Origin: an uncultured virus (IMG/VR IMGVR_UViG_3300029305_009042) | Lineage: Duplodnaviria > Heunggongvirae > Uroviricota > Caudoviricetes | IMG/VR virus record: IMGVR_UViG_3300029305_009042 | Length of the DNA: 64,000 bases | Direction: 5' to 3' (one strand) | Part shown: positions 3,209 through 33,398 of the stretch, piece by piece | Numbering within the stretch: position 1 is the first letter of the stretch | How the letters are laid out: each line of letters starts with the position of its first letter | Notes under the pieces: generated by a model | Database searches by the model: none | Told to the model about the DNA's origin: nothing | The model's input: the letters and a program-made list of their open reading frames with translations, nothing else | Position numbers and translations under genes: made by a program

Positions 3209-4288
3209 CTACCGCTTAGCCGCCGGAGGCTTGACATTTCCCCGCACAGGCTCCCACTGTTTGCCACCAAGACTAACATTATCCGAGTACCGGGTCGGTG
3301 TCCCTATATTATAAAAATTGTCGTCGTCAGCCTGATCTGCCCTGCGCCTTCGTGTTCCATAGTCGTACGCGGTTCCGTCCCAACGCTCAATCTTCTTGCC
3401 GTCGTCTTCTTTATAAAACGAGTCCATATCGCGATCACCCGGGCCTGACCACACGGCACCAGTATTGAGAGGAGAAGGCATAATAAAGCCACGCGGACAC
3501 CACTTAAGCAGCGAGAGCGCTGTCTGCTCCGCTCCATCGCTTATAGCCCGCGGTGTTGTGGGTGCCACCCGTACCCCGTGATGCTTCGAATACCGCTCTA
3601 TAACTCCCAACGCATACGGCAGCTCATCCGGTGTAGTACGCAGCACAAACTCGTGGGTACCGTGGATACCTTCACCTGTCCATCCGCCGCCCGAAGGAAA
3701 CGTCCGATCCAGATAAGCTCTCTCCGAACGCGGTACAGGATACAAGCCGGTCTGCGGAGTGCCGTGATACCAGCGCGGCCGTGTCGGATCCAGTTTCTTA
3801 TCCTCCGCCCACAGCTTCCGATAATACTCCCGCTGTGCCCTCTCTGCTGCAGCCCGCCACGCCTCTTCTGCCTGCTGTGTCCCCTCCACTAAAGAAGCAG
3901 GATCCCGTAGATACCTGTTCTGCGCCTCCGTCTCCTTTGTTATAAGCGCCGCAAACTTGCGGCCCGGACCTGTAACAGATCCAGGAACCTGACGCACAGG
4001 CGGAATGTACACCCTTTTCGGAGCCGGACCGCCCTGCGGACTGCGCGGGACCGGTACGGGTCCGATATTTCGCATGGAAGGCGGGACCCATCCCGGCGGA
4101 GGACCCGCCGCCGTCGGTCTGGCGTTCTGCCGCGCCAAAACATCCAGAGTGCTCATCCTCGGAGCCGGCACTGCCGCCGGATTCTTCACAGGACCCGCTG
4201 CCCGCTGTGCAGGACCCGGAGCAGGACCTGCTTCTTTCAGCATCCGCTCCGCCTGCGCGGCCTTATACAATAAATGAAAATTGATCAT
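3209..4288 (-). CDS. Hypothetical Pro/Ala-rich protein
   Basis: Long ORF; likely start MINFHLLY directly after the nrdD stop. Confidence 0.6.
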   Translation of the reverse strand: MINFHLLYKAAQAERMLKEAGPAPGPAQRAAGPVKNPAAVPAPRMSTLDVLARQNARPTAAGPPPGWVPPSMRNIGPVPVPRSPQGGPAPKRVYIPPVRQVPGSVTGPGRKFAALITKETEAQNRYLRDPASLVEGTQQAEEAWRAAAERAQREYYRKLWAEDKKLDPTRPRWYHGTPQTGLYPVPRSERAYLDRTFPSGGGWTGEGIHGTHEFVLRTTPDELPYALGVIERYSKHHGVRVAPTTPRAISDGAEQTALSLLKWCPRGFIMPSPLNTGAVWSGPGDRDMDSFYKEDDGKKIERWDGTAYDYGTRRRRADQADDDNFYNIGTPTRYSDNVSLGGKQWEPVRGNVKPPAAKR

Positions 4289-4296
4289 TGAATACC

Positions 4297-5940
4297 TCAG
4301 GTATCGTAAGGACACGTCTCGTGATCACCCGGGATGTAGCCGTGCACGGGACAAATACTGAATGTCGGCGTCAGGGAGAAATACGGCATACGGAAGTGCT
4401 CAAAGACCTTGCGGACCAGATTGCCCACTGTCTCCGGATCCTCGACCTGCTCGCCTATATAGGCATGAAAGACCGTTCCGCCGGTATAGGCGCACTGGAG
4501 TTCATCCTGATGCCGCAATGCCTCAAACAAGTCATCCGTGTAGCCGACCGGAAGCTGAGAGGAATTCGTGTAGTACGGCACCTCCGTTCCCGATGTGTAC
4601 ATTTCCGGATACCGGTCTCTGTCTTCCTTCGCAAGACGATACGAAGTTCCCTCGCCCGGGACACCTTCCAGATTATACAGGTGCCCTGTTTTTTCCTGAA
4701 ATTCCTGGAGGCGTTCCCGGATCATTTCCAGGACCTCCAGTGCAAAAGCGCGTCCTTCTTCTGTCTCGATCCCCTTTCCCAGGAAGTTCATGCACATCTC
4801 GTGCATCCCGATCGTGCCGATGGTATGGAAGTGATTATCCAGCGTACCAAGGTAGATCTTGGAATAAGGCATCAGCCCGTTCTCGAAGTTCTTCGACACT
4901 TCCCCGCGCTTAAGTTCCAGAGCCTGCATGGCACTGTCCAGCAGGGATCCCAGCCGTGCCCTGAAGTCCTCCTTATCCTTCGCGAGATACCCGATCCGCG
5001 GCAGGTTCAGCGTCACTACGCCAATGCTTCCTGTCTTGTCGCCGGAGCCGAACAGTCCGCCTCCCTTATGGCGAAGATCCTTGAGGGAAAGCTGAAGACG
5101 GCAGCACATGCTGCGCACTTCACTGGGGTCCCGGTCGGAACTGATGAAATTCTGGAAATACGGCAGCCCGTACTTGCCCGTAGCTAAAAATAAAAGCCGG
5201 GCATTCTCATCCTTCCAGTCAAAATCAGGCGTCATGCTGTACGTCGGGATGGGGAAGGAAAAGATGCGCCCGTCGGCGTCCCCTTCAAGCATCACTTCCA
5301 GAAAAGCGCGGTTGATCATCGCCATCTCTTCCGGGAAATCCCCATACGTCCACTCGTCGTGAGGTTCCCCGCCAATAATGACCGGCGTGTCCTTCAGGTC
5401 CTTCGGACAGTTCCAGTCCAGCGTTACGTTGGTGAAACTCGCCTGCCCAAGACGCATTCCGGTGTTAAGCATGAACACGAACCGCTGAATATCCTGCCGG
5501 ACCTGCTCATACGTCAGGTTGTCCGCACGGACGAACGGAGCCAGAAAGGTATCGAAGGAGTTGATCGCCTGCGCTCCCGCCCACTCACCCTGCAATGTGA
5601 TCAGGAAGTTCATCAGCTGGGCAAGTATGGAATCCAGATGCTTCGCAGGCGCACTCCTCAAGCGTCCCGGTCCGCCCTCAAAACCCTTCAGGAGAATATC
5701 CATGAACGACCAGCCCGCACAGTAGGGAACAATGCCGTTGGAAAGGTCGTGGATGTGCATACTGCCGTCCCGATGCAGGTCCGCTATCTCTTTCGGATAT
5801 ACATTCTCCAGGGTATGCTCCGCGATCGCCGCCCCGGCAACGTGGCTGATCAGACTCTGATAACAGTAATTGGAATTGGCATTCTCCTGAATGCGCCAGT
5901 CTCTCTTTCCGAGATACTCTTCTACTCTGTCTTTGGACAT
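4297..5940 (-). CDS. nrdD: Class III (anaerobic) ribonucleoside-triphosphate reductase, without ATP cone or C-terminal glycyl-radical motif
   Basis: HIHDLS, YCAGWS, GEWAGAQA, SMCCRLQL, GSIGVVTLNLPR, PGEGTSYRLA, YTGGTVFH and SLTPTFSICPVHGY motifs. Confidence 0.93.
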   Translation of the reverse strand: MSKDRVEEYLGKRDWRIQENANSNYCYQSLISHVAGAAIAEHTLENVYPKEIADLHRDGSMHIHDLSNGIVPYCAGWSFMDILLKGFEGGPGRLRSAPAKHLDSILAQLMNFLITLQGEWAGAQAINSFDTFLAPFVRADNLTYEQVRQDIQRFVFMLNTGMRLGQASFTNVTLDWNCPKDLKDTPVIIGGEPHDEWTYGDFPEEMAMINRAFLEVMLEGDADGRIFSFPIPTYSMTPDFDWKDENARLLFLATGKYGLPYFQNFISSDRDPSEVRSMCCRLQLSLKDLRHKGGGLFGSGDKTGSIGVVTLNLPRIGYLAKDKEDFRARLGSLLDSAMQALELKRGEVSKNFENGLMPYSKIYLGTLDNHFHTIGTIGMHEMCMNFLGKGIETEEGRAFALEVLEMIRERLQEFQEKTGHLYNLEGVPGEGTSYRLAKEDRDRYPEMYTSGTEVPYYTNSSQLPVGYTDDLFEALRHQDELQCAYTGGTVFHAYIGEQVEDPETVGNLVRKVFEHFRMPYFSLTPTFSICPVHGYIPGDHETCPYDT

Positions 5941-7082
5941 GCTTTCTCCTGATTATGGTAAAGGGCCATTCCTTCGTTATGTATATTAATAGCGGCATTG
6001 ATGTCCCGGTCGTGCTTTCTGCCGCACTGCGGGCAGGTCCACTCCCTGTCGCTTAATGTCAGCTCCGTATTCTTAAACCCGCAGCAGGAACAGAGTTTCG
6101 AAGACGGGAACATCCTGTCTATCTGTATGATGGTCTTTCCCGCGGCTTCCGCAAGGTACGTCAGCTTCTGAATAAAGCTGTACAGAGCATATTCGCCGAT
6201 CTTCCTGCCGAAACTGCGGCTCATCCCCTGAAGGTTCAGCGTCTCGAAACAGATTATATCATACTTCTCCAAAAGACGGTTACTCAGCTCCCACTGAAAA
6301 TGCTCCCGCTGATGCCGGATCTTGCGGTGAAGTCTCGCTATTTTAAGCCTCATTGCCTCCCGCTTATTAGATCTCCGCTCCTTTCCGGCAAACTGCTTCT
6401 GGAGCTTCGCCAGCTCCTTGAGCGACTCCCTGAAATACTGCGGCGCCTCAAAGGAAGAACCATCACTGCCTGTCAGGAAAGTCTTGATCCCGAAGTCAAA
6501 ACCGACGGAACGCCCATAGTTTGGCATCTGCTCCGTCCGTGTCTCGTCTACCGTCAGGGATACCCAGAAATCACCGCAGGCGTCCCGTGTGACTGTCATC
6601 GTCTTCACCTGTCCTGTCCACTGCTGATTACGGAAGTAGCGATACCTTGTCTTTCCTACCCGGATCTGATCGTCAGGAAGTACAGCCGCGCCTTTGCCCG
6701 GCTGAAAAAAGAGCGTGCCGTACTCGCGAACACGCTGGAACTTCGGAGGCGACGCTCTGCGCTTCTGCTTCAGGTTTCTGAAAAACTGATTGTAGGAAAG
6801 ACGGATGCGCTTGTGAATGTTACACAGGGTGTCGCGAGGTATCGCGTCATACTTCCGAATATTCCCGTTCCCCCTCGCCTTCGCGCGTTTCCGGGTTTCC
6901 GTCAAATAATAAGACAGCGCGTACTGCTTATGGTCCACAAAAATGTTCCTGCCGGTCCTGCGGTAATAAAGCCGGCAGATCCTGATACAGCGGTTATAGT
7001 ACTTTCCGCACAAATACATCATATCCGACAGCTGCCTCCGCTCCTTCGCCTTGGTATAGAGCTTGAATCGATAACCGCGCAT
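5922..7082 (-). CDS. tnpB: TnpB-family RNA-guided endonuclease (IS200/IS605 OrfB-like), CRISPR-associated
   Basis: N-terminal YRFKLY; RuvC-I GFDFG, RuvC-II CFETL, zinc finger CSCC/CPQC and RuvC-III DRDINAAINI with D-E-D intact; RBS (AGGAGA) before MRGYRF gives 386 aa. Confidence 0.93.
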   Translation of the reverse strand: MRGYRFKLYTKAKERRQLSDMMYLCGKYYNRCIRICRLYYRRTGRNIFVDHKQYALSYYLTETRKRAKARGNGNIRKYDAIPRDTLCNIHKRIRLSYNQFFRNLKQKRRASPPKFQRVREYGTLFFQPGKGAAVLPDDQIRVGKTRYRYFRNQQWTGQVKTMTVTRDACGDFWVSLTVDETRTEQMPNYGRSVGFDFGIKTFLTGSDGSSFEAPQYFRESLKELAKLQKQFAGKERRSNKREAMRLKIARLHRKIRHQREHFQWELSNRLLEKYDIICFETLNLQGMSRSFGRKIGEYALYSFIQKLTYLAEAAGKTIIQIDRMFPSSKLCSCCGFKNTELTLSDREWTCPQCGRKHDRDINAAINIHNEGMALYHNQEKACPKTE

Positions 7083-7128
7083 TGTCACATCTCCTAAAAA
7101 AAATAAGCGCTTCCGCGCCATGTCTCTC

Positions 7129-7151
7129 AAAAAAAACAGTCCATCAGGACT
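7129..7151 (-). terminator. Terminator between the CRISPR array and tnpB
   Basis: Minus strand reads AGTCC-TGAT-GGACT followed by GTTTTTTTT. Confidence 0.55.
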
Positions 7152-7299
7152 CAGGCAGTTATCCGAGGATCCTGGATAACTGAAAGAAAACGGAAACCAT
7201 GCCCGCGTATTGGCTCCGCCAGCTTACGGCAGACAGCGGAGACCTCGGCCCGGGCACAGACTTCATTTGGGAGGCGGCGCGTCTTGCGTCACTTCCCCC

Positions 7300-7633
7300 A
7301 AAAAAACCAACTCCCGCACGGGCTTCACTTTCGTTACACTTTTCTTTTCCTCTTATGGTTAGAAACCCCAACTCACGCGCGGGCTTCACACATTGGCGTG
7401 GCTGTCCTTCAAAAAGGGTGTAGAAACCCCAACTCACGCGCGGGCTTCACCCGCAGGGTATCGACGAGGGCCACGGCTCTACAGAAACCCCAACTCACGC
7501 GCGGGCTTCACCTCGACCAAAGGGGGAAGAGAAAAACGGATCCAGAAACCCCAACTCACGCGCGGGCTTCACCCGCTCTGGCTCTCTTCATGAATACCAG
7601 CCTTGGAAACCCCAACTCACGCGCGGGCTTCAC
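7300..7633 (-). CRISPR. CRISPR array: 6 repeats (29 bp) and 5 spacers (32 bp)
   Basis: AGAAACCCCAACTCACGCGCGGGCTTCAC at 7361, 7422, 7483, 7544 and 7605 (first base G), plus a degenerate copy at 7300 with 5 mismatches; exact 61-bp period; unique spacers. Orientation inferred from the degenerate trailer and the terminator. Confidence 0.95.
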
Positions 7634-7679
7634 ACCAGTATATTGTATCTTTACCCTTTGCGTCACGCAGTATATTGGG

Positions 7680-7795
7680 GCGGTCCCTTTTTTGGGACCC
7701 GCACGCGCCTCAAGGGCGCTTCCAGGCTCAAACGGCGTCTGCCTGCCGAAGCAGGTCTTACATCGCCTAACCTGAGAGACCGCGTTCGACCTCTT
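7680..7795 (-). ncRNA. omegaRNA-like scaffold / putative tracrRNA
   Basis: Minus strand CAGGTTAGGCGATGTAAGACCTGCTTCGGCAGGCAGACGCCGTTTGAGCCTGGAAGC resembles IS605 TnpB omegaRNA cores (GATGTAAGAC...GTTTGA...GAA) with nested stems; 7723-7697 is complementary to the CRISPR repeat. Confidence 0.7.
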
Positions 7796-7886
7796 TACTT
7801 ATCTGATAAAGAAACCATTTCCGAAAGCAAGCAGAAAATGCAGAATTATGCTAAAATCTTCAGAATCTAAAATAAAGGAGGATTTT

Positions 7887-9533
7887 ATGCCGGTCGGTAT
7901 TTCTCATATTCAGTACGGCGACCACTATCCGCTTGTGGATCCGTCGCCGGATATTCAGTTCCTCATCGCCGACATGACCGTCAGTCATGAAGATCCGCGC
8001 TTTGAGTATGACCTTCCCCTGCGGATAGCCCGCATCACGCCCAAAGGACATCTCCGGCTGGAAACCTGCAGCGGACAGCCGGTTCTGGACTCCGAAGAAG
8101 CGGAGATCCTTCCCTTCGGCGCCTACACGCTCTATACCTGGACTTCCGCTACGGTTCAGGTCAAGATGGTTATTAATAATCAGCGGAATTTCCCGGACGT
8201 TCTCCTCCCGGAACACGCCGTTCTGGACCTGCGAGCCGTTTACTGCGTCCCGCCGAGGATCCGCACGGTCAATGGACATTCCGGCAGGATAGAGATCGCT
8301 GCCGGAACCAATATCCAGCTCGGAAGCACTCCCAGAGAAGACTTCCGCAGCGAGAATCAGCTCACACTGGATGCTGTACCCGGTGCCGGAACAGGAAAAG
8401 TCACGGTCCCCTGTGAAGAGGTCGAAAAAAAGTTCCTTCTGCGCAGCATCAACGGAGTAAAGCCCAATGCAGACGGAGCTGTCTTCCTGCCTACTGTCAA
8501 CGGACAGACGTTAGCGGTCGGATGCGGGCATCTTCAGCTCGCAAACACCAATGAACCCTGCTGTACCTGCGAAGACATGACGGCTTTCGCGGAATACCTC
8601 AATAAGGTAGCCGACGCCTACCGTGAGATAGGCGGAAAAGCACGCTGGCTGCGGGAACAGCACGATAAACTCGTAAAACTGTGGCAGAGTATCCCCGATT
8701 GTACCGGCACGGCGGCTGCCAGCGTCATTGGACTGGCGCAAAGCTGTCCCCTGATCGAAGTCCGGGCGGCCATCACCAACCTGCACTCTCAGGCAGCCTC
8801 TTTCATCAAGATAAACAGTCATGCGGAGATACTGGAAGGAGAAGGAAGCCTGAAACTCGTCCGGCAGATCATCTCCAACTACCAGTTTGAGGGAAATCAG
8901 GTACCGCAGTGGGTCACGCACTATGACCCGGAGCAGAAAAAGCTGGTCCGGAGGCTGAAAGCAGTCTTCGCGTCCGAAGGAACCAAGACATTCAGCGACG
9001 TTTCTGCCGACAGCGAAGTCTACCTGCTCTGGCAGGGGCACTATGACGAGGAAACAAACGAAAGAGAAGCCGTCACGGAGGCAAATCGCACCCTGACGGA
9101 CGAAAACGGGAACCTGATCGCGGAAGGAGACACCAAAACACCGGACCTTTTCGAGAAATGGTTCAAAAACAGCCCGTTCATGGAGTGGTACTGCGTCCCG
9201 GCAGGCGAGACCGTCTACTGGCACGGCATCTACCAGATCATTCTCGACGATAAAGAGGAAACATTCTCGGAAAACTACCGTATCCAGTTCACGCTGGACT
9301 CCGGACACATCGATTTCTTCGCTCACGGCTCGGAAATACCGCTGGAATACCGGCAGCTGGGCGGTCCGTACCTCTCCGGTACCCAGAAAACTACCGTAAA
9401 CCTGAACTGTGTCATCGATGAAGACTCCATCATGGACCCGGCACCCCGAAAAGAAGACGCAGAGACCATCCGAAAGAAGATCTTCGAGATCAAGCAGCGC
9501 TACTGGCCCTGCAAAGGAGAAGAAGAGGCATAA
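7887..9533 (+). CDS. Putative virion structural (tail/baseplate-associated) protein
   Basis: RBS AAGGAGG; SINGVKPNADGAV and PCCTC motifs resemble large-phage tail-region proteins (inference). Confidence 0.5.
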   Translation: MPVGISHIQYGDHYPLVDPSPDIQFLIADMTVSHEDPRFEYDLPLRIARITPKGHLRLETCSGQPVLDSEEAEILPFGAYTLYTWTSATVQVKMVINNQRNFPDVLLPEHAVLDLRAVYCVPPRIRTVNGHSGRIEIAAGTNIQLGSTPREDFRSENQLTLDAVPGAGTGKVTVPCEEVEKKFLLRSINGVKPNADGAVFLPTVNGQTLAVGCGHLQLANTNEPCCTCEDMTAFAEYLNKVADAYREIGGKARWLREQHDKLVKLWQSIPDCTGTAAASVIGLAQSCPLIEVRAAITNLHSQAASFIKINSHAEILEGEGSLKLVRQIISNYQFEGNQVPQWVTHYDPEQKKLVRRLKAVFASEGTKTFSDVSADSEVYLLWQGHYDEETNEREAVTEANRTLTDENGNLIAEGDTKTPDLFEKWFKNSPFMEWYCVPAGETVYWHGIYQIILDDKEETFSENYRIQFTLDSGHIDFFAHGSEIPLEYRQLGGPYLSGTQKTTVNLNCVIDEDSIMDPAPRKEDAETIRKKIFEIKQRYWPCKGEEEA

Positions 9534-9536
9534 AAA

Positions 9537-10907
9537 ATGCAGGAAATCTATAATGCAGCCTGGTATGCAGGCAATGAAGAAGTAAAATACCCGCTGGACA
9601 GCAATGCTTCCGGCTATGACCTGTCCGGAAACGCGCTCCCGACCGCGCTGATCACCGATATTCGGCTGATGTCCGCTGAAAACGAGAAAATATTCTACAT
9701 TTCAGGCGTCACCTGCTCGGAATACCTGATCAGCGTCGTCATCGCCTCCCAGTTCGGTACCGAAGCAGCCGTCGCGCTGCCGCAGCCGGTCGCTCCGTTG
9801 ACCCATTACCCGCTGGAATGCTTCCACGACAGCCTGCAGGGGGTCATCGCGTTCGGGCATACTCAGGAAAAGGGGCAATGGCGCTTCGATTCCCCCTCTC
9901 AAAGCGGAATCTCCCCCTCCTGTATCGTCCGCCTGAAGCCGTGGCCTGTCCCCTCCCTCGGCATCCGGAACCATCGTCTGACCGGCGACATCGTTTTTGA
10001 GGCAGGAACGGCAGTCACCATACGAAAAGAGACGGTTTACCTCGGCGAGACCCGCGCACAGGGCATCTCCGGAGAAGGTCTGGAAGAAGTACAGGCGCTG
10101 GTCTTTCATCTGTCCCCCTCCGACACCGGAGACGGAGACCCGACAGGACCTTACCGGGGAGAATGTGACCAGCGTCCTGAGAACGGCGACTGCAACTGCA
10201 TCACTTCACTGGGAGGCGCTGTGCCGGATGAGACCGGAAACGTCCAGATCCGGCTGGTGACGGACGCCTCTGCCTCTGATCTCTACGCCTACACCGCACT
10301 CCAGTTCTTCGGAAGTACGGAAGAGAAGGAAAGATGTCAGGATAACCTCTGTCAGGGCGTCCAGCTCACCATTCAGGATGAAAAGCAGGAGCGGGAACCG
10401 ATGAATTTCGGACGCTGCGGGCAGGATCCCTGTGAAGAAACCTCGGAAGACGTCATCCCCTACCGCCTGAACCGCCCCGGCGTGCTCCCGGAGGACTTCT
10501 ATCCCCTGACCGGGACCGGTCTGAGCTATCTTTCCGGCGTCGGACTCCAAAGCGAGAGCATTGAACCGGCTGTCGCTGTCACGGATACGCACGGCAGCTA
10601 TGTTTCCGCCTCGTTCACCCGCTCTCAGGACGGAACGTGCGGTATCGTCTACGGGATCCTGAATCCGGATCGCTTCTCGCTCTTCTCCTACGACGGAGAG
10701 ACCCTGCGGTTGGGCTCCAAAACACTGCCTCTGAGTACCCGGCAGCCGGAACTGACTTTTATTTTAGCTGTTGAAAACCATCAGCTCACCGGAGAACTCT
10801 TCGCCGGACGCACTCTGGCAGGCTCTTTGACGGTCCCTGTTACCGAACTGGGACAGACCGGCGTCTATCTGCACCACAGTCTCTGTAAATCATGGAGGAT
10901 CCAATGA
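9537..10907 (+). CDS. Putative virion structural protein
   Basis: Coupled to the previous gene; related SLGGAVPDETGNV motif; Cys clusters. Confidence 0.5.
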   Translation: MQEIYNAAWYAGNEEVKYPLDSNASGYDLSGNALPTALITDIRLMSAENEKIFYISGVTCSEYLISVVIASQFGTEAAVALPQPVAPLTHYPLECFHDSLQGVIAFGHTQEKGQWRFDSPSQSGISPSCIVRLKPWPVPSLGIRNHRLTGDIVFEAGTAVTIRKETVYLGETRAQGISGEGLEEVQALVFHLSPSDTGDGDPTGPYRGECDQRPENGDCNCITSLGGAVPDETGNVQIRLVTDASASDLYAYTALQFFGSTEEKERCQDNLCQGVQLTIQDEKQEREPMNFGRCGQDPCEETSEDVIPYRLNRPGVLPEDFYPLTGTGLSYLSGVGLQSESIEPAVAVTDTHGSYVSASFTRSQDGTCGIVYGILNPDRFSLFSYDGETLRLGSKTLPLSTRQPELTFILAVENHQLTGELFAGRTLAGSLTVPVTELGQTGVYLHHSLCKSWRIQ

Positions 10908-13413: not shown

Positions 13414-13463
13414 TGAAAACAAAAACCGGAACTTCTATACCGCCCCGGGGACAGGCGGTCTCT
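13414..13463. repeat. Intergenic module A, copy 1
   Basis: First 35 bp identical to 14149-14183. Confidence 0.85.
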
Positions 13464-14021: not shown

Positions 14022-14045
14022 TTTATTTCCTTTCAGTAAAAATCA

Positions 14046-14145
14046 GCGGAGTTAAAACACTTAACTCCTTTTACTCACGATATATGCCCCCAAAACCCGC
14101 ATTTTTAAGCAAAAAAAGGGAGCAGACCAAAGCCCGCTCCCTCCT
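14046..14145. repeat. Intergenic module B, copy 1 (terminator + promoter-like motif + palindrome)
   Basis: Near-identical to 15117-15216; contains GGAGTTAA-AACAC-TTAACTCC and a GGGAGC/GCTCCC hairpin. Confidence 0.85.
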
Positions 14146-14148
14146 ATT

Positions 14149-14198
14149 TGAAAACAAAAACCGGAACTTCTATACCGCCCCGGATACTGGCGGTCTCT
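14149..14198. repeat. Intergenic module A, copy 2
   Basis: Matches 13414-13463. Confidence 0.85.
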
Positions 14199-14203
14199 CG
14201 GTC

Positions 14204-15088
14204 CTACTCGAATGCGGGACAATCCGAAAATGCCCCGTATTCGAGTTTCACGCCGGCGGGGAGTCTCACGTCCGTGAGACGGAAACAGCTGTAGAAGGCT
14301 ACACCCTTGATCCTCGTCACACTGTCGGGGATCGTCACAGACGTGAGCCTCGTACAGCCGGCGAACGCGGCCATGCCGATGCTCGTCACGCCGTCGGGGA
14401 TCGTCACCGACGTGAGGCTACGGCAGTCTTGGAACGCGAAGCTGCTGATCCGCGTAACGCCCACGGGAATCGTCACCGACGTGAGGCTCTCACAGAAGAA
14501 GAACGCCCGAGCTCCAATGCTCGTCACGCCGGCGGGGATCTTCACGGACGTGAGGTTGGCGCAGCAGCTGAATGCCCCCGCCCCAATGCTCGTCACACTG
14601 TCGGGGATCGTCACCGACGTGAGGCTACGGCAGCCGCTGAACGCTTCATCTCCGATATGCGTAACCCCTTCCGGGATCACATATTCGTCACCCGGTTTCC
14701 CGGGCGGGACCTGAATGAGCGTTTTCCCGTCTGCGGAAAACAGGACTCCATCCACGCTCTTGAAATGCGTATTGCCCGCGGAGACTTGGATCTCGGTCAG
14801 TTTCCAACAGTGCGGAAACAAATCCTTCCCAACACTCGTCACGCTAGCAGGGATCGTCACAGACGTGAGACTCTTACACCCGTCGAACGCGCGATCTCCA
14901 ATGCTCGTCACGCTGTTGGGGATCACTACCAACTCGAGGTCCTCGCAGAGCCAGAATGCCTGGCTCTGGATACTTGTCACACCGTCCGGGATGGTGTAAC
15001 TCGTCTTCTCCTGTGCAACTCTCACAAGAGTACTGCCGTCGCCCGACAGCAGTACACCATTCACGTCTTTCATGTTTTCTTTTTTCAT
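14204..15088 (-). CDS. BspA-type leucine-rich-repeat (LRR_5) protein
   Basis: 23-aa repeats LTSVTIPxxVTSIGxxAFxxC. Confidence 0.92.
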   Translation of the reverse strand: MKKENMKDVNGVLLSGDGSTLVRVAQEKTSYTIPDGVTSIQSQAFWLCEDLELVVIPNSVTSIGDRAFDGCKSLTSVTIPASVTSVGKDLFPHCWKLTEIQVSAGNTHFKSVDGVLFSADGKTLIQVPPGKPGDEYVIPEGVTHIGDEAFSGCRSLTSVTIPDSVTSIGAGAFSCCANLTSVKIPAGVTSIGARAFFFCESLTSVTIPVGVTRISSFAFQDCRSLTSVTIPDGVTSIGMAAFAGCTRLTSVTIPDSVTRIKGVAFYSCFRLTDVRLPAGVKLEYGAFSDCPAFE

Positions 15089-15116
15089 TTTTCTATTCCT
15101 TTCTTAAAAAAAATTC

Positions 15117-15216
15117 GCGGAGTTAAAACACTTAACTCCTTTTTATTCATGCTATATGCCCCAAAACCCGCATTTTTAAGCAAAAAAAGGGAGCAGACCG
15201 AAGCTCGCTCCCTCCT
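15117..15216. repeat. Intergenic module B, copy 2
   Basis: Near-identical to 14046-14145. Confidence 0.85.
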
Positions 15217-15226
15217 GCAGGAGAAA

Positions 15227-15664
15227 CTAATCCAAACCCTTTTTTCTTCGCAGTGCCAGCAGCCGCTGCAACGCCTCCGGAGGCAGATTCAGTTCTTTAT
15301 ACTGGACCGCCCGCAGTTCTTCCTGTGCTTCCAGTCCGGACATGTTGGTATTCCGGTATCTGCCGCGCGTATCGAACATCGGCAGGTAGGCTTCTCCTGC
15401 CATTTTGCAGAATTCCGCGGCATGTTCTTCCGGGATGCCAAACTCTTTCACCGCTTTTGCCGGCGGACAGCCTCTCAGTCTTCTGGCTAACCCAGCCGTG
15501 AAGACCGGAACGCCGTCATGGAACCCGTCCCGGTCACAGGCGACCCATTCCTTTTTATTAATATCAAACCTGCGGAAGTTTTCAGCCCCAGTTGTCGTGG
15601 TACTCGCTTTCCCAGTCTTCGTCATCATATCCTTCCTCGTCTTCTCCGTCCAAAAGCTGTTCAT
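15227..15664 (-). CDS. Hypothetical protein (start uncertain)
   Basis: ORF in the minus-strand operon. Confidence 0.5.
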   Translation of the reverse strand: MNSFWTEKTRKDMMTKTGKASTTTTGAENFRRFDINKKEWVACDRDGFHDGVPVFTAGLARRLRGCPPAKAVKEFGIPEEHAAEFCKMAGEAYLPMFDTRGRYRNTNMSGLEAQEELRAVQYKELNLPPEALQRLLALRRKKGLD

Positions 15665-31670: not shown

Positions 31671-32684
31671 TTAATCACGATACTCTACGATACAGTTCTC
31701 CGGAAACGCATTCGGATGACAGTACGTGTTTTTACTCACGCTGACACGCCGAAGTCCATCGAATGCCGCGTCGCCGATGTACACTACCGAATCCGGAAGT
31801 GACGTCTCTTTCAGTTTTATGTCTAAGAAAGCCGCTTCTTCGATGACCCTTAGCGTCGAGGGCCACTGCACGGTCTCAACTCCCGAACCGGAAAAAGCAT
31901 ACGGCCCGATAGACTCCAGCCCCTCTGGAAGTACCAGCCTATGCAGCCGCTGGCAGCCAGCAAAGGCATAGTCCCGGATATGCCGCACACCCTCCTGCAG
32001 ATCCAGAGAGGAGAGCCAAATGCACTCCTCACACATGCTGCTTGGTATCTCTTCCACAGAAACCGTCAAAGATGCGATCGTCGCGCCTTTGAATGCCGCC
32101 CGCTGGATCGTCTTCACAGTGTCCGGAACGACATACGCGTCTACTGTACAGCGGTGTCCCGAACAAAGGACCTCGCCGTCCCGCAGCAGGCGGACACCTG
32201 CATTCTCCTCAGCACGATACACTTTAACGTGGTCGTCGAAGGCACAAGGTGAAATGTATGCTTCAGGGAACGCACTTTCAAACTCCTTGAGGCCCGTACA
32301 GCCGTCAAATGCAAAAGACTCGATCGCTTCCACTTCTGGACGGTCTACTTTTTCGAGAGAAAAACAACACACGAAAGCATCAACCAGAATATGTCTCACT
32401 CCTGTGAAGTCGAACTCCCGCAGTGAGCCGCAATGCCTGAAACATGCCGGCGGAATACATTCTGTGTGCAGTTTCACTTTCTCAAGAGAAGTGCAGTTCT
32501 CAAACGCTCTCTTCCCCAGTGTTACCCACTTGCTGTAACAGGTAACTTCCCGAAGAGATCCCAGCTCCCGAAAGGCATCATCCTCGATCTTTTTGACATC
32601 GTAGCCAAGTTCGACCACCTCAACGTCTTTGTCTATAATGTCCTTTTCACAAATAACCTTTTTATCCAGATACAGTTTTGACAT
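31671..32684 (-). CDS. BspA-type LRR protein
   Basis: LVLPEGLESIGPYAFSG-type repeats. Confidence 0.88.
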   Translation of the reverse strand: MSKLYLDKKVICEKDIIDKDVEVVELGYDVKKIEDDAFRELGSLREVTCYSKWVTLGKRAFENCTSLEKVKLHTECIPPACFRHCGSLREFDFTGVRHILVDAFVCCFSLEKVDRPEVEAIESFAFDGCTGLKEFESAFPEAYISPCAFDDHVKVYRAEENAGVRLLRDGEVLCSGHRCTVDAYVVPDTVKTIQRAAFKGATIASLTVSVEEIPSSMCEECIWLSSLDLQEGVRHIRDYAFAGCQRLHRLVLPEGLESIGPYAFSGSGVETVQWPSTLRVIEEAAFLDIKLKETSLPDSVVYIGDAAFDGLRRVSVSKNTYCHPNAFPENCIVEYRD

Positions 32685-32741
32685 ACTTTTCCTCCTCAAA
32701 ACAAAACAGGCGGAGCCTTTCGACCCCTCCGGAAATCACGA

Positions 32742-33398
32742 TTATTTATTAATAACAGGATACGAGTAACTGTCCTTAAACAGCTGCTCCCGTTCATCCC
32801 GTGTCAGAACATTCGGCATCGTCACCTCTTCCAGACTGAAACAGCCGTCAAAGGTGTTCAACGGAATACTTTCCAAACGCGGAGGCAGGATCACATCCCG
32901 CAGCCGAGAACAGTTCTGGAACATACGCTCCCCCATCCGGGCAGCCATACTGCTTCCAAGAGAAACATCCTCCAGCTTTTCGCAATCCTGAAAAACACCG
33001 TCTCCGAGCCTGAGCAGCGGACCTGGATTATGGAACTTCTCCAGCCAGTAGTTTCCCTTGAACGCACCCTTCCCTAGGGCACCTACACCTCCTCCGAAAG
33101 TCACTTTTTCAACATTCGTATTTTCAAAGGCAAACGCTCCGATCGAATAAACGGTCCTGTCGAAACAAAGCTCCTCCAGAGTCGAACCGTAAAAGGCACA
33201 CTCCTCAATAAATTCGACCCCCTCCTTGAAATGAACCCTTGGGCAGGTACAGCCCGCAAACGCCGATTCTCCAATGCGTTTCACTTCCGAGTGAAACACG
33301 ATCTCCTGGATGTCGCGCCATCCTGCAAACTGTTTGTCCCGGATCGTATCACAGTAAACATTCAGAACACTGTCTTTTAATACCAAATGCTGTTTCAT
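32742..33398 (-). CDS. BspA-type LRR protein
   Basis: VKRIGESAFAGC and VILPPRLESIPLNTFDGC repeats. Confidence 0.85.
   Translation of the reverse strand: MKQHLVLKDSVLNVYCDTIRDKQFAGWRDIQEIVFHSEVKRIGESAFAGCTCPRVHFKEGVEFIEECAFYGSTLEELCFDRTVYSIGAFAFENTNVEKVTFGGGVGALGKGAFKGNYWLEKFHNPGPLLRLGDGVFQDCEKLEDVSLGSSMAARMGERMFQNCSRLRDVILPPRLESIPLNTFDGCFSLEEVTMPNVLTRDEREQLFKDSYSYPVINK

Follow-up and report, generated by a model that had tools for sequence, protein, structure and literature searches.

A phage tnpB gene accompanied by an omegaRNA-homologous scaffold and a short CRISPR-like array

The uncultured Caudoviricetes record IMGVR_UViG_3300029305_009042, described as a large gut phage, holds 187,654 bases and is estimated to be approximately 94% complete; the window analyzed here is a stretch of 64,000 nucleotides (nt) from this record. 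Read along the minus strand, the locus of interest comprises an AT-rich intergenic stretch, a structured element (approximately 7797–7680), a 46-nt leader, a short CRISPR-like array, terminator-like hairpins, and a tnpB gene. The whole system takes up about 2 kb of phage DNA, with a 386-residue protein, a scaffold of about 115 nt, and repeats of 29 nt. An earlier note, made from the letters of the window alone, had described 7680–7795 as an omegaRNA-derived scaffold carrying an anti-repeat, that is, as a putative trans-activating CRISPR RNA (tracrRNA). Here, we describe the components of this locus and assess how they may work together.

The tnpB gene and its surroundings

The tnpB gene (5922–7082, minus strand) encodes 386 residues when read from the ATG at 7082 and matches the Pfam families OrfB_IS605 and Cas12f1-like_TNB. 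An upstream TTG at 7130 would yield a protein of 402 residues; the two closest relatives, P0001 and P0002, begin at the same Met as the shorter form. The NCBIfam model guided_TnpB (“RNA-guided endonuclease TnpB”) matches over the full length of the protein with 247 bits, whereas the NCBIfam models for Cas12f2 (42.1 bits, cut-off 450) and C2c8 (74.8 bits, cut-off 350) remain far below their thresholds. In an alignment of 25 sequences, the columns of D196, E280, and D360, which we take to be the acidic residues of the RuvC site, are invariant, and the predicted nuclease is intact.

Among 1855 database relatives, only P0001 (98% identity) and P0002 (82%) are close, and the next ones, at about 42% identity, are ordinary TnpBs. 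Close relatives accompanied by DNA were not found in IMG/VR, the JGI metagenomes, or GenBank phages, and all 429 GenBank phage records are below 60% identity. Compared with solved structures, the protein matches ISDra2 TnpB with an E value of 1e-40, and matches LaTranC in the C-terminal 124 residues only (E = 1.6e-22).

The stop codon of tnpB overlaps the start of nrdD, which encodes an anaerobic ribonucleotide reductase, at 5940. Because of this overlap, and because the omegaRNA model described later gives no second match, there is no room for an omegaRNA at the 3′ end of the gene. The omegaRNA-like scaffold lies elsewhere; its match starts 727 nt upstream of the tnpB start, on the same strand. 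Approximately 217 nt separate the array from tnpB, and this interval holds three terminator-like hairpins with T-runs (7106–7206, minus strand; shuffle mean 1.2). Scaffold, array, and tnpB are all read in the same direction, as deduced from the repeat hairpin, which is strong on the minus strand only, and from the degenerate repeat, which lies farthest from the scaffold.

Searches of the phage record gave no matches to Cas1, Cas2, or the Y1 transposase TnpA (PF01797). With a single tnpB and a single scaffold in 187,654 bases, the locus lacks the hallmarks of mobile IS200/IS605 elements, namely TnpA and several copies. No relic of a tnpB coding sequence was seen upstream of the scaffold, either in three frames or with tblastn. 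As a separate observation, the tnpB stop lies 19 nt into the nrdD frame (5922–5940), and the C-terminal tail of TnpB that overlaps nrdD is nearly identical in P0002.

Homology of the scaffold to omegaRNAs

The helices and hairpins listed in the earlier note are all present on the minus strand at the positions it gave. Stem 1, AGAGGUCG/CGGUCUCU, occupies 7775–7794, as seen in the sequence and in the model alignment described later, and is accompanied by the helices CAGGUU/AGCCUG and GGCG/CGCC and the hairpin CCUGC-UUCG-GCAGG. The hairpin GCGCC-CUUGA-GGCGC (7705–7719, minus strand) folds and aligns to model helix 98–124, which makes it the homolog of the terminal hairpin, called “stem 4” in ISDra2. 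After the scaffold tail, a further hairpin, GGUCCC-AAAAAA-GGGACC (7682–7699, minus strand), folds as well; no U-tract follows it, and it was not called as a terminator. The minimum-energy fold of the scaffold contains the listed helices and has a free energy of −58.3 kcal/mol, compared with −47.7 ± 4.0 kcal/mol for shuffled sequences (z = −2.63; 2 of 200 shuffles as good).

To place the element among known guide RNAs, we collected 160 loci with TnpB relatives at 28 to 42% identity, divided equally between IMG/VR and reference genomes (80 each). With the window scaffold as query, nhmmer returned 36 matches at E values up to 10, of which 35 lie on the coding strand at a tnpB 3′ end, that is, where omegaRNAs are located; the one exception is a second copy of the element in its locus (L108). 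An iterated profile extended this to 70 sites at tnpB 3′ ends. In one genome with a multi-copy element, no difference separates the copies as far as …GTCAA, and they diverge directly thereafter, which marks the end of the transposon and the start of the guide.

After removal of near-duplicates, 48 sequences were left, of which 46 entered the alignment (A3); the two omitted were L116, which nearly duplicates L110, and L107, whose last hairpin has an insertion. The consensus structure of these 46 relatives comprises 30 pairs, and compensatory changes are seen at 22 of these. Pairing is possible in 93.4% of the cells, compared with 72.9% after shuffling (none of 500 shuffles reached the observed value) and 38 to 54% in slid controls. 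The relatives also share a pseudoknot in which the stem-1 loop pairs with the five bases preceding the final AA, for which 97.4% of the cells pair and the covariation score is 0.444 versus 0.209 (none of 500 shuffles as high; slid controls 11–56%). One G–C pair of this pseudoknot is kept in all 46 relatives, and columns 23 to 25 are invariant G. In PMC10097598, a corresponding pseudoknot is described for the ISDra2 structure. The motif GAUGUAAGAC…GUUUGA…GAA, which the earlier note had associated with IS605 omegaRNAs, matches the consensus of the 46 sequences.

A covariance model, R1, was built from the 46 relatives alone, with the window excluded. Over the 80 viral loci, R1 gave 26 matches, 24 of them at a tnpB 3′ end, which indicates that it is an omegaRNA model; viral loci not used in building it scored 23 to 97 bits. 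In the window, R1 matches 7678–7809 on the minus strand with 58.8 bits (E = 2.5e-13), spanning model positions 1 to 135 of 135, and the match is recovered also with filters switched off. The matched stretch, a candidate tracrRNA, comprises stem 1, the central stems, the internal hairpin, the stem-4 homolog, and a diverged tail, and cmsearch marks three of the 30 model pairs as nonstandard. This is the only such element in the 187-kb phage. A second match at 32664–32756 (minus strand; 15 bits, E = 0.12) was taken as chance, since it lies between two minus-strand genes and consists of a terminator-like hairpin, a ribosome-binding site, and a start codon.

Rfam gave no match in 5000–10000 at E values up to 10. 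Rfam seemingly has no model for this clade of omegaRNAs, so that this blank is not evidence against homology; the covariance-model check proposed in the earlier note is thus answered by the purpose-built model and not by Rfam. Based on the end-to-end match to a model of relatives only and on the nhmmer results, the origin claimed for the scaffold is strongly supported, and by sequence comparison the scaffold is a genuine omegaRNA homolog.

The differences between the scaffold and its relatives are local. At the top of stem 1, the relatives have the eight bases GGGGCAUC, nearly without variation and with three invariant G, and the window has CGAACGCG (7788–7781). The tail behind the last hairpin is also altered. 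By our reading of the R1 alignment, two of the five pseudoknot positions can pair at their aligned places, and the G–C pair kept in all relatives is lost; a shifted 3-bp alternative in cis, between CGC in the loop and GCG in the tail, is possible. The stem-4 homolog is cut to five pairs, with a four-column gap relative to model helix 98–124. At the place of the relatives’ guide, the window has the hairpin 7699–7682, then the leader, and then the array. Hence, of the hallmarks of this omegaRNA clade, the scaffold shows neither the abutment to a tnpB 3′ end with a guide after …TCAA nor, at the aligned positions, the 5-pair pseudoknot. In the alignment, the scaffold departs from a canonical self-contained omegaRNA exactly at the guide attachment, and the loss of the invariant pseudoknot loop argues against an ordinary RNA of that type.

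Strain variation bears on whether such an altered RNA is still in use. All or part of the stretch occurs in twenty sequencing runs (14 studies); four of these runs were compared, using contigs only. Across the scaffold stretch, X8 differs by no letters and one gap in 7606–7855 (250 nt), X12 by two letters and one gap in 7605–7900 (296 nt), and X16 by one letter in 7700–7900 (201 nt); tnpB in the same runs differs by approximately 3% (20/676 and 16/598). A single gap that recurs in X12 and X16 falls in the loop of the 7699–7682 hairpin, and two runs have one extra base in this loop, at place 7687. The metatranscriptome run X20 has contigs over 7765–7900 and over parts of tnpB, not over most of the scaffold or the leader; the mean word depth is 0 in the bins of 7575–7708 and 0.64 in 7709–7775. 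Contigs from X20 cannot show absence, transcript ends, or strand, and stretches of the array without contig cover in X8 and X12 are likewise uninterpretable.

The scaffold might be a decaying remnant of a former tnpB–omegaRNA unit that has become functionless. It no longer adjoins tnpB, its conserved pseudoknot loop is gone, its terminal hairpin is shortened, and no transcript evidence was found, with the limit just given for X20. We nevertheless consider decay very improbable, because the scaffold retains 27 of the 30 model pairs, with changes on both sides when compared with the relatives, because 58.8 bits is within the range of 23 to 97 bits of working omegaRNAs from viral loci unused in R1, and because the stretch is nearly invariant among strains whose tnpB genes differ by approximately 3%.

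One contig of 149 nt from X8 joins position 6002 to 7782 via 37 unrelated letters, the shorter side of the joint being 38 nt. Judged from this contig, some related phage appears to be without the whole scaffold–array–tnpB cassette, apart from the final 27 or so tnpB codons and half of stem 1 (the first).

The array and its connection to the scaffold

A repeat search revealed an array of six 29-nt repeats with a period of 61 nt and spacers of 32 nt (7300–7633, minus strand). Repeats 1 to 5 (7633–7605, 7572–7544, 7511–7483, 7450–7422, and 7389–7361) are identical, and repeat 6 (7328–7300), on the tnpB side, is degenerate; five identical 26-nt cores compare with none expected by chance. On the minus strand, the repeat forms a hairpin of 7 bp that leaves a single base in front of the spacer (−12.9 kcal/mol, z = −3.0; a value attained by 1 of 200 shuffles), whereas the plus-strand repeat folds poorly (z = −0.43) because the stem relies on G–U pairs. 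Between the scaffold and the array, a promoter-like GTGACG-18 nt-TATACT (7637–7666, minus strand), identified by consensus match only, ends 3 nt before repeat 1; it is the sole sigma-70-like site in 7050–7950 (shuffle mean 0.4). The leader also contains a 10-nt direct repeat, CAATATACTG (minus strand), with copies at 7668–7677, behind the last hairpin of the scaffold, and at 7636–7645, where it forms the −10-like hexamer before repeat 1. At positions 7314 and 7318 of repeat 6, three other runs have the consensus base and the window does not, which indicates that the repeat 6 of the window has drifted further.

We looked for the origin of the repeat inside and outside the locus. The idea that it is a copy of the last omegaRNA hairpin was not supported, R1 giving at most 2.6 bits on the repeats. 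In local alignments to the scaffold, 945 of 2000 shuffled sequences scored as well, and in alignments to the 3′ ends of the 46 relatives, 64 of 200 did. These comparisons do not support an origin by duplication of an omegaRNA end, and capture of a foreign array is possible. The exact repeat is absent from IMG/VR, and no CRISPR repeat family in Rfam matches it. With up to three mismatches, it was found in none of 401 sampled genomes from the order of an Anaerotruncus genome (gut Clostridia) and in none of the four genomes behind other loci.

An array of this kind could be a virus-borne mini-array that depends on Cas proteins of the host for acquisition and interference and merely sits beside TnpB, the scaffold then being TnpB’s own relocated omegaRNA. 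A 29-nt repeat with a 32-nt spacer is the geometry of type I-E arrays, and the repeat has no detectable similarity to the scaffold or to the 3′ ends of the relatives’ omegaRNAs, nor a match to R1. In addition, the X16 contig has many differences inside spacers 2 to 4; as the phage lacks Cas1 and Cas2, such turnover of spacers needs outside machinery or recombination. Still, we regard dependence on host Cas as rather unlikely. Nearly the full repeat is taken up by the hairpin, which stops 1 nt short of the spacer; this placement, immediately 5′ of the guide, is that of type V systems, whereas type I CRISPR RNAs (crRNAs) have an 8-nt handle. The lack of an Rfam repeat family also speaks against it, and so, weakly, does the absence from 401 gut Clostridia genomes, which covers one order and carries little weight. 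Finally, the tight linkage, the common orientation, and a TnpB with no other source of guides argue for a functional link between the array and TnpB.

The reading that we favor, with moderate confidence, is that the locus is a phage TnpB–CRISPR hybrid, similar to the TranC systems discussed later, with a dual-RNA mechanism. An intact TnpB of transposon size would have lost the omegaRNA that normally overlaps its 3′ end, and one full-length omegaRNA homolog lies upstream on the same strand, followed by the six-repeat array. The scaffold would supply the protein-binding body of the guide RNA, in the manner of a tracrRNA, and each repeat–spacer unit would supply a guide. Scaffold and crRNA would assemble on TnpB, which would cut DNA matching the spacer, the targets most likely being DNA of competing mobile elements. 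The two RNAs would be joined by base pairing, for which three places may be considered: two candidate anti-repeats (sites A and B) and the changed stem-1 loop, which might form a short pseudoknot with the 3′ end of the repeat.

Site A (7697–7723, minus strand; RNAduplex −33.6 kcal/mol) is the anti-repeat proposed in the earlier note. Its first part, GGAAGCGCC (7723–7715), pairs with the 3′ end of the repeat over nine positions with one G–G mismatch, and its second part, CGCGUGCGGGU (7707–7697), pairs with the 5′ half over 11 pairs, three of which are G–U; RNAduplex reproduces this two-part pairing of 7723–7697 with the whole repeat. Set against 3194 windows of 120 nt, taken from both strands (mean −23.1, standard deviation 4.2), site A has a z score of −2.5, and three other loci, not counting the array’s own antisense, are as good or better. 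Site B lies in the leader (7652–7688, minus strand), where RNAcofold pairs GCCCCAAU..UAC.GCGU..GGGU with repeat positions 6 to 25. When the leader is included, RNAcofold picks this site, with a difference in free energy (ddG) of −6.1, and leaves all scaffold hairpins intact; the site B duplex has −26.2 kcal/mol, and 17 of 1000 and 29 of 1000 shuffles are as good. As a third option, the 3′ UUUC of the repeat may pair with the GAA of the changed stem-1 loop, which would mimic the short pseudoknot of ISDra2.

Several observations weigh against a dual-RNA mechanism. The signal at site A is weak: in two sets of 1000 shuffles, 39 of the repeats and 32 of the scaffolds pair as well. To form, the site A duplex would have to open the stem-4 homolog, a portion of the scaffold hairpin that follows it, and the hairpin of the repeat itself, and would engage a segment that is able to form the 3-bp pseudoknot in cis; because the scaffold hairpins and the repeat hairpin must melt, the net gain upon co-folding is just −1.3 kcal/mol. 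The ddG of site B is matched by 187 of 300 shuffled repeats, and sites A and B compete for the role of anti-repeat. The repeat is palindromic, and such type V repeats usually go with tracrRNA-independent crRNAs, according to a hypothesis in PMC10097598. The only promoter-like site lies between scaffold and array, so that there may be two separate transcripts. No target of the array was found among GenBank phages or plasmids, 21- to 24-mers of spacers 1 to 4 have no exact match in IMG/VR, and no self-target is present in the phage, where the longest exact off-site match is 13 nt.

Taken together, complementarity between scaffold and repeat is present in the stem-4 region, where a split omegaRNA should have it, and is statistically modest and not unique. 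The terms anti-repeat and tracrRNA are plausible on the basis of these folding models. Regarding the earlier note, the pairings exist as it wrote them, but they fall in a 3 to 4% shuffle tail, compete with hairpins, and have a similar rival at site B. The co-folding of scaffold and repeat that it had suggested yielded the small gain at site A and a preference for site B once the leader was included.

The same data can be explained without any base pairing if TnpB has two independent sources of guides. In that case, the scaffold would be a relocated, self-contained omegaRNA with a fixed guide after …CCCAA (from approximately 7691), and TnpB would bind the hairpin crRNAs alone, as a condensed omegaRNA, in the manner of Cas12a. 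The scaffold keeps its terminal hairpin, the CAA of its tail is at the position of the relatives’ invariant TCAA, and the 3-bp CGC/GCG pseudoknot is possible at the canonical register; according to PMC10097598, ISDra2 has just three Watson–Crick pairs in its pseudoknot. A strong repeat hairpin abutting the spacer, and a co-folding result that prefers separate hairpins or nearly so, point in the same direction. We consider this explanation unlikely, since a 29-nt handle would hardly suffice for a TnpB of 386 residues, given that relatives at 35 to 42% identity all use a scaffold of approximately 120 nt, and since the invariant G–C pair of the pseudoknot is lost. Moreover, the would-be fixed guide matches nothing else in this phage, the best being 16 nt with one mismatch, outside the first 14 nt of the guide.

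Other repeated sequences in the window are of a different kind. Six copies with a 69-nt period at 14250–14959, inside the open reading frame 14084–15490, probably encode a 23-residue protein repeat. Pairs of intergenic segments of approximately 35 to 58 nt are 94 to 97% identical and lie approximately 735 to 1071 nt apart (13414–13463 and 14149–14198; 14038–14145 and 15109–15216); these may be regulatory modules flanking paralogous genes.

Relation to known systems

The favored reading, of a TnpB–CRISPR hybrid with two RNAs, has its closest counterpart in the TranC transposon–CRISPR intermediates (Jin et al., Cell 2025, as summarized in PMC13565253; bioRxiv 10.64898/2026.03.27.714800). As in TranC, a nuclease of TnpB lineage lies beside a short CRISPR array without adaptation genes, and the body of the guide RNA would descend from the transposon right-end (omega) RNA. 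The effector likewise has a presumably intact RuvC site (guided_TnpB 247 bits). The window TnpB does not belong to the LaTranC lineage (structures 9jfo/9jfq), and its scaffold precedes the array and is separated from the gene. In bioRxiv 10.64898/2026.03.27.714800, tracrRNAs were sought between effector and array. For a guide split like that of TranC, there are here two candidate anti-repeats, each with p values of about 0.02 to 0.04 by shuffling and each with competing hairpins. The suggestion in the earlier note that the RNA may be in the middle of splitting or may work in both modes, split and self-contained, matches what these sources report for TranC systems, which are characterized by DNA cleavage under the direction of both crRNA and reRNA.

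Among the systems in bioRxiv 10.64898/2026.03.27.714800, CauTranC9 is a CRISPR-associated nuclease of TnpB size from a Caudoviricetes genome. Like the window system, it is phage-borne, lacks expanded REC and WED domains, has a proposed anti-phage role, and comes with a small array (five repeats, compared with 5 + 1 here). Its repeats are 38 bp, whereas those in the window are 29 nt. Its native spacers are described as matching phages, whereas no targets were found for the spacers here.

An array-like arrangement was also noticed at one of the other loci. In L053, a 12.6-kb IMG/VR contig, four direct repeats of 38 to 39 nt with a spacing of 71 to 73 lie directly upstream of a TnpB relative with 30% identity (coordinates 2190–2445 and 3563–3725), and R1 gives a weak match (23.6 bits) at the 3′ end of the gene. 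The repeat length recalls the 38-bp repeats described for the phage-borne TranC clade 9. The L053 repeat shows no special complementarity to its own omegaRNA region, 490 of 500 and 127 of 500 shuffles being as good.

Compared with canonical IS200/IS605 elements, represented by the ISDra2 TnpB–omegaRNA complex (PDB 8bf8/8h1j; Nakagawa et al. 2023, PMC10097598), the locus shares a full-length guided_TnpB match and, judged against the 46 relatives, an RNA with stem 1, the central stems, the internal hairpin, the GAA junction, and the terminal hairpin. It differs in that the scaffold lies away from the 3′ end of the gene, there is no Y1 TnpA, and the element is single-copy. Furthermore, both the pseudoknot loop and its partner strand are changed, and a hairpin, a leader, and an array take the place of a single guide.

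PMC10097598 describes the TnpB omegaRNA as a “natural sgRNA” (single guide RNA), whose pseudoknot and stem 4 correspond to the repeat:anti-repeat duplexes 1 and 2 of Cas12f (type V-F). Cas12f is similarly a small effector that depends on a long structured RNA, and site A falls on the stem-4 homolog, the equivalent of duplex 2 according to the same paper. In contrast to Cas12f systems, the window TnpB is far below the Cas12f2 and C2c8 cut-offs, the repeat is palindromic, and, with pairing at site A, no pseudoknot strand of the crRNA would separate the duplex from the spacer.

According to Altae-Tran et al. 2023 (PMC10691335), the arrays associated with Cas12 or TnpB are in nearly all cases downstream of the gene, like the omegaRNA. 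As far as visible, the locus is similar to known TnpB/Cas12-array systems and differs from them in its lineage, in the upstream position of scaffold and array, and in the joint presence of palindromic repeats and a full-length scaffold of near-canonical form. This kind of locus has been known since 2025, and the present one belongs to a lineage with just two close relatives.

More speculatively, the locus may combine both routes that have been proposed from an omegaRNA to a CRISPR guide, a detached near-canonical omegaRNA that no longer has its pseudoknot loop serving as scaffold in trans for self-folding palindromic crRNAs. On this view, which we hold to be possible but doubtful, the 29 + 32 geometry would let the phage borrow the adaptation machine of a host, the GAA of the stem-1 loop and the GGAA of the junction would both read the 3′ UUUC of the repeat, and one scaffold could be used in two ways, as a tracrRNA or as a single-molecule guide. 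The locus would then be among the youngest natural intermediates between transposon and CRISPR, carried by a phage and with an effector that is 42% identical to mobile TnpBs.

The evolution from TnpB to Cas12 is thought to begin with the split of an omegaRNA into a tracrRNA and a crRNA, and in the sources consulted here, natural transposon–CRISPR intermediates were described only in 2025. Because the scaffold of the window can be aligned helix by helix to that of mobile relatives, the changed parts can be named exactly: its location, the pseudoknot loop, the terminal hairpin, and the tail. The compactness of the locus makes it well suited to asking which minimal change lets a TnpB read a CRISPR array, and it would add a case of a phage that carries such a system, presumably for use in conflicts with other mobile elements.

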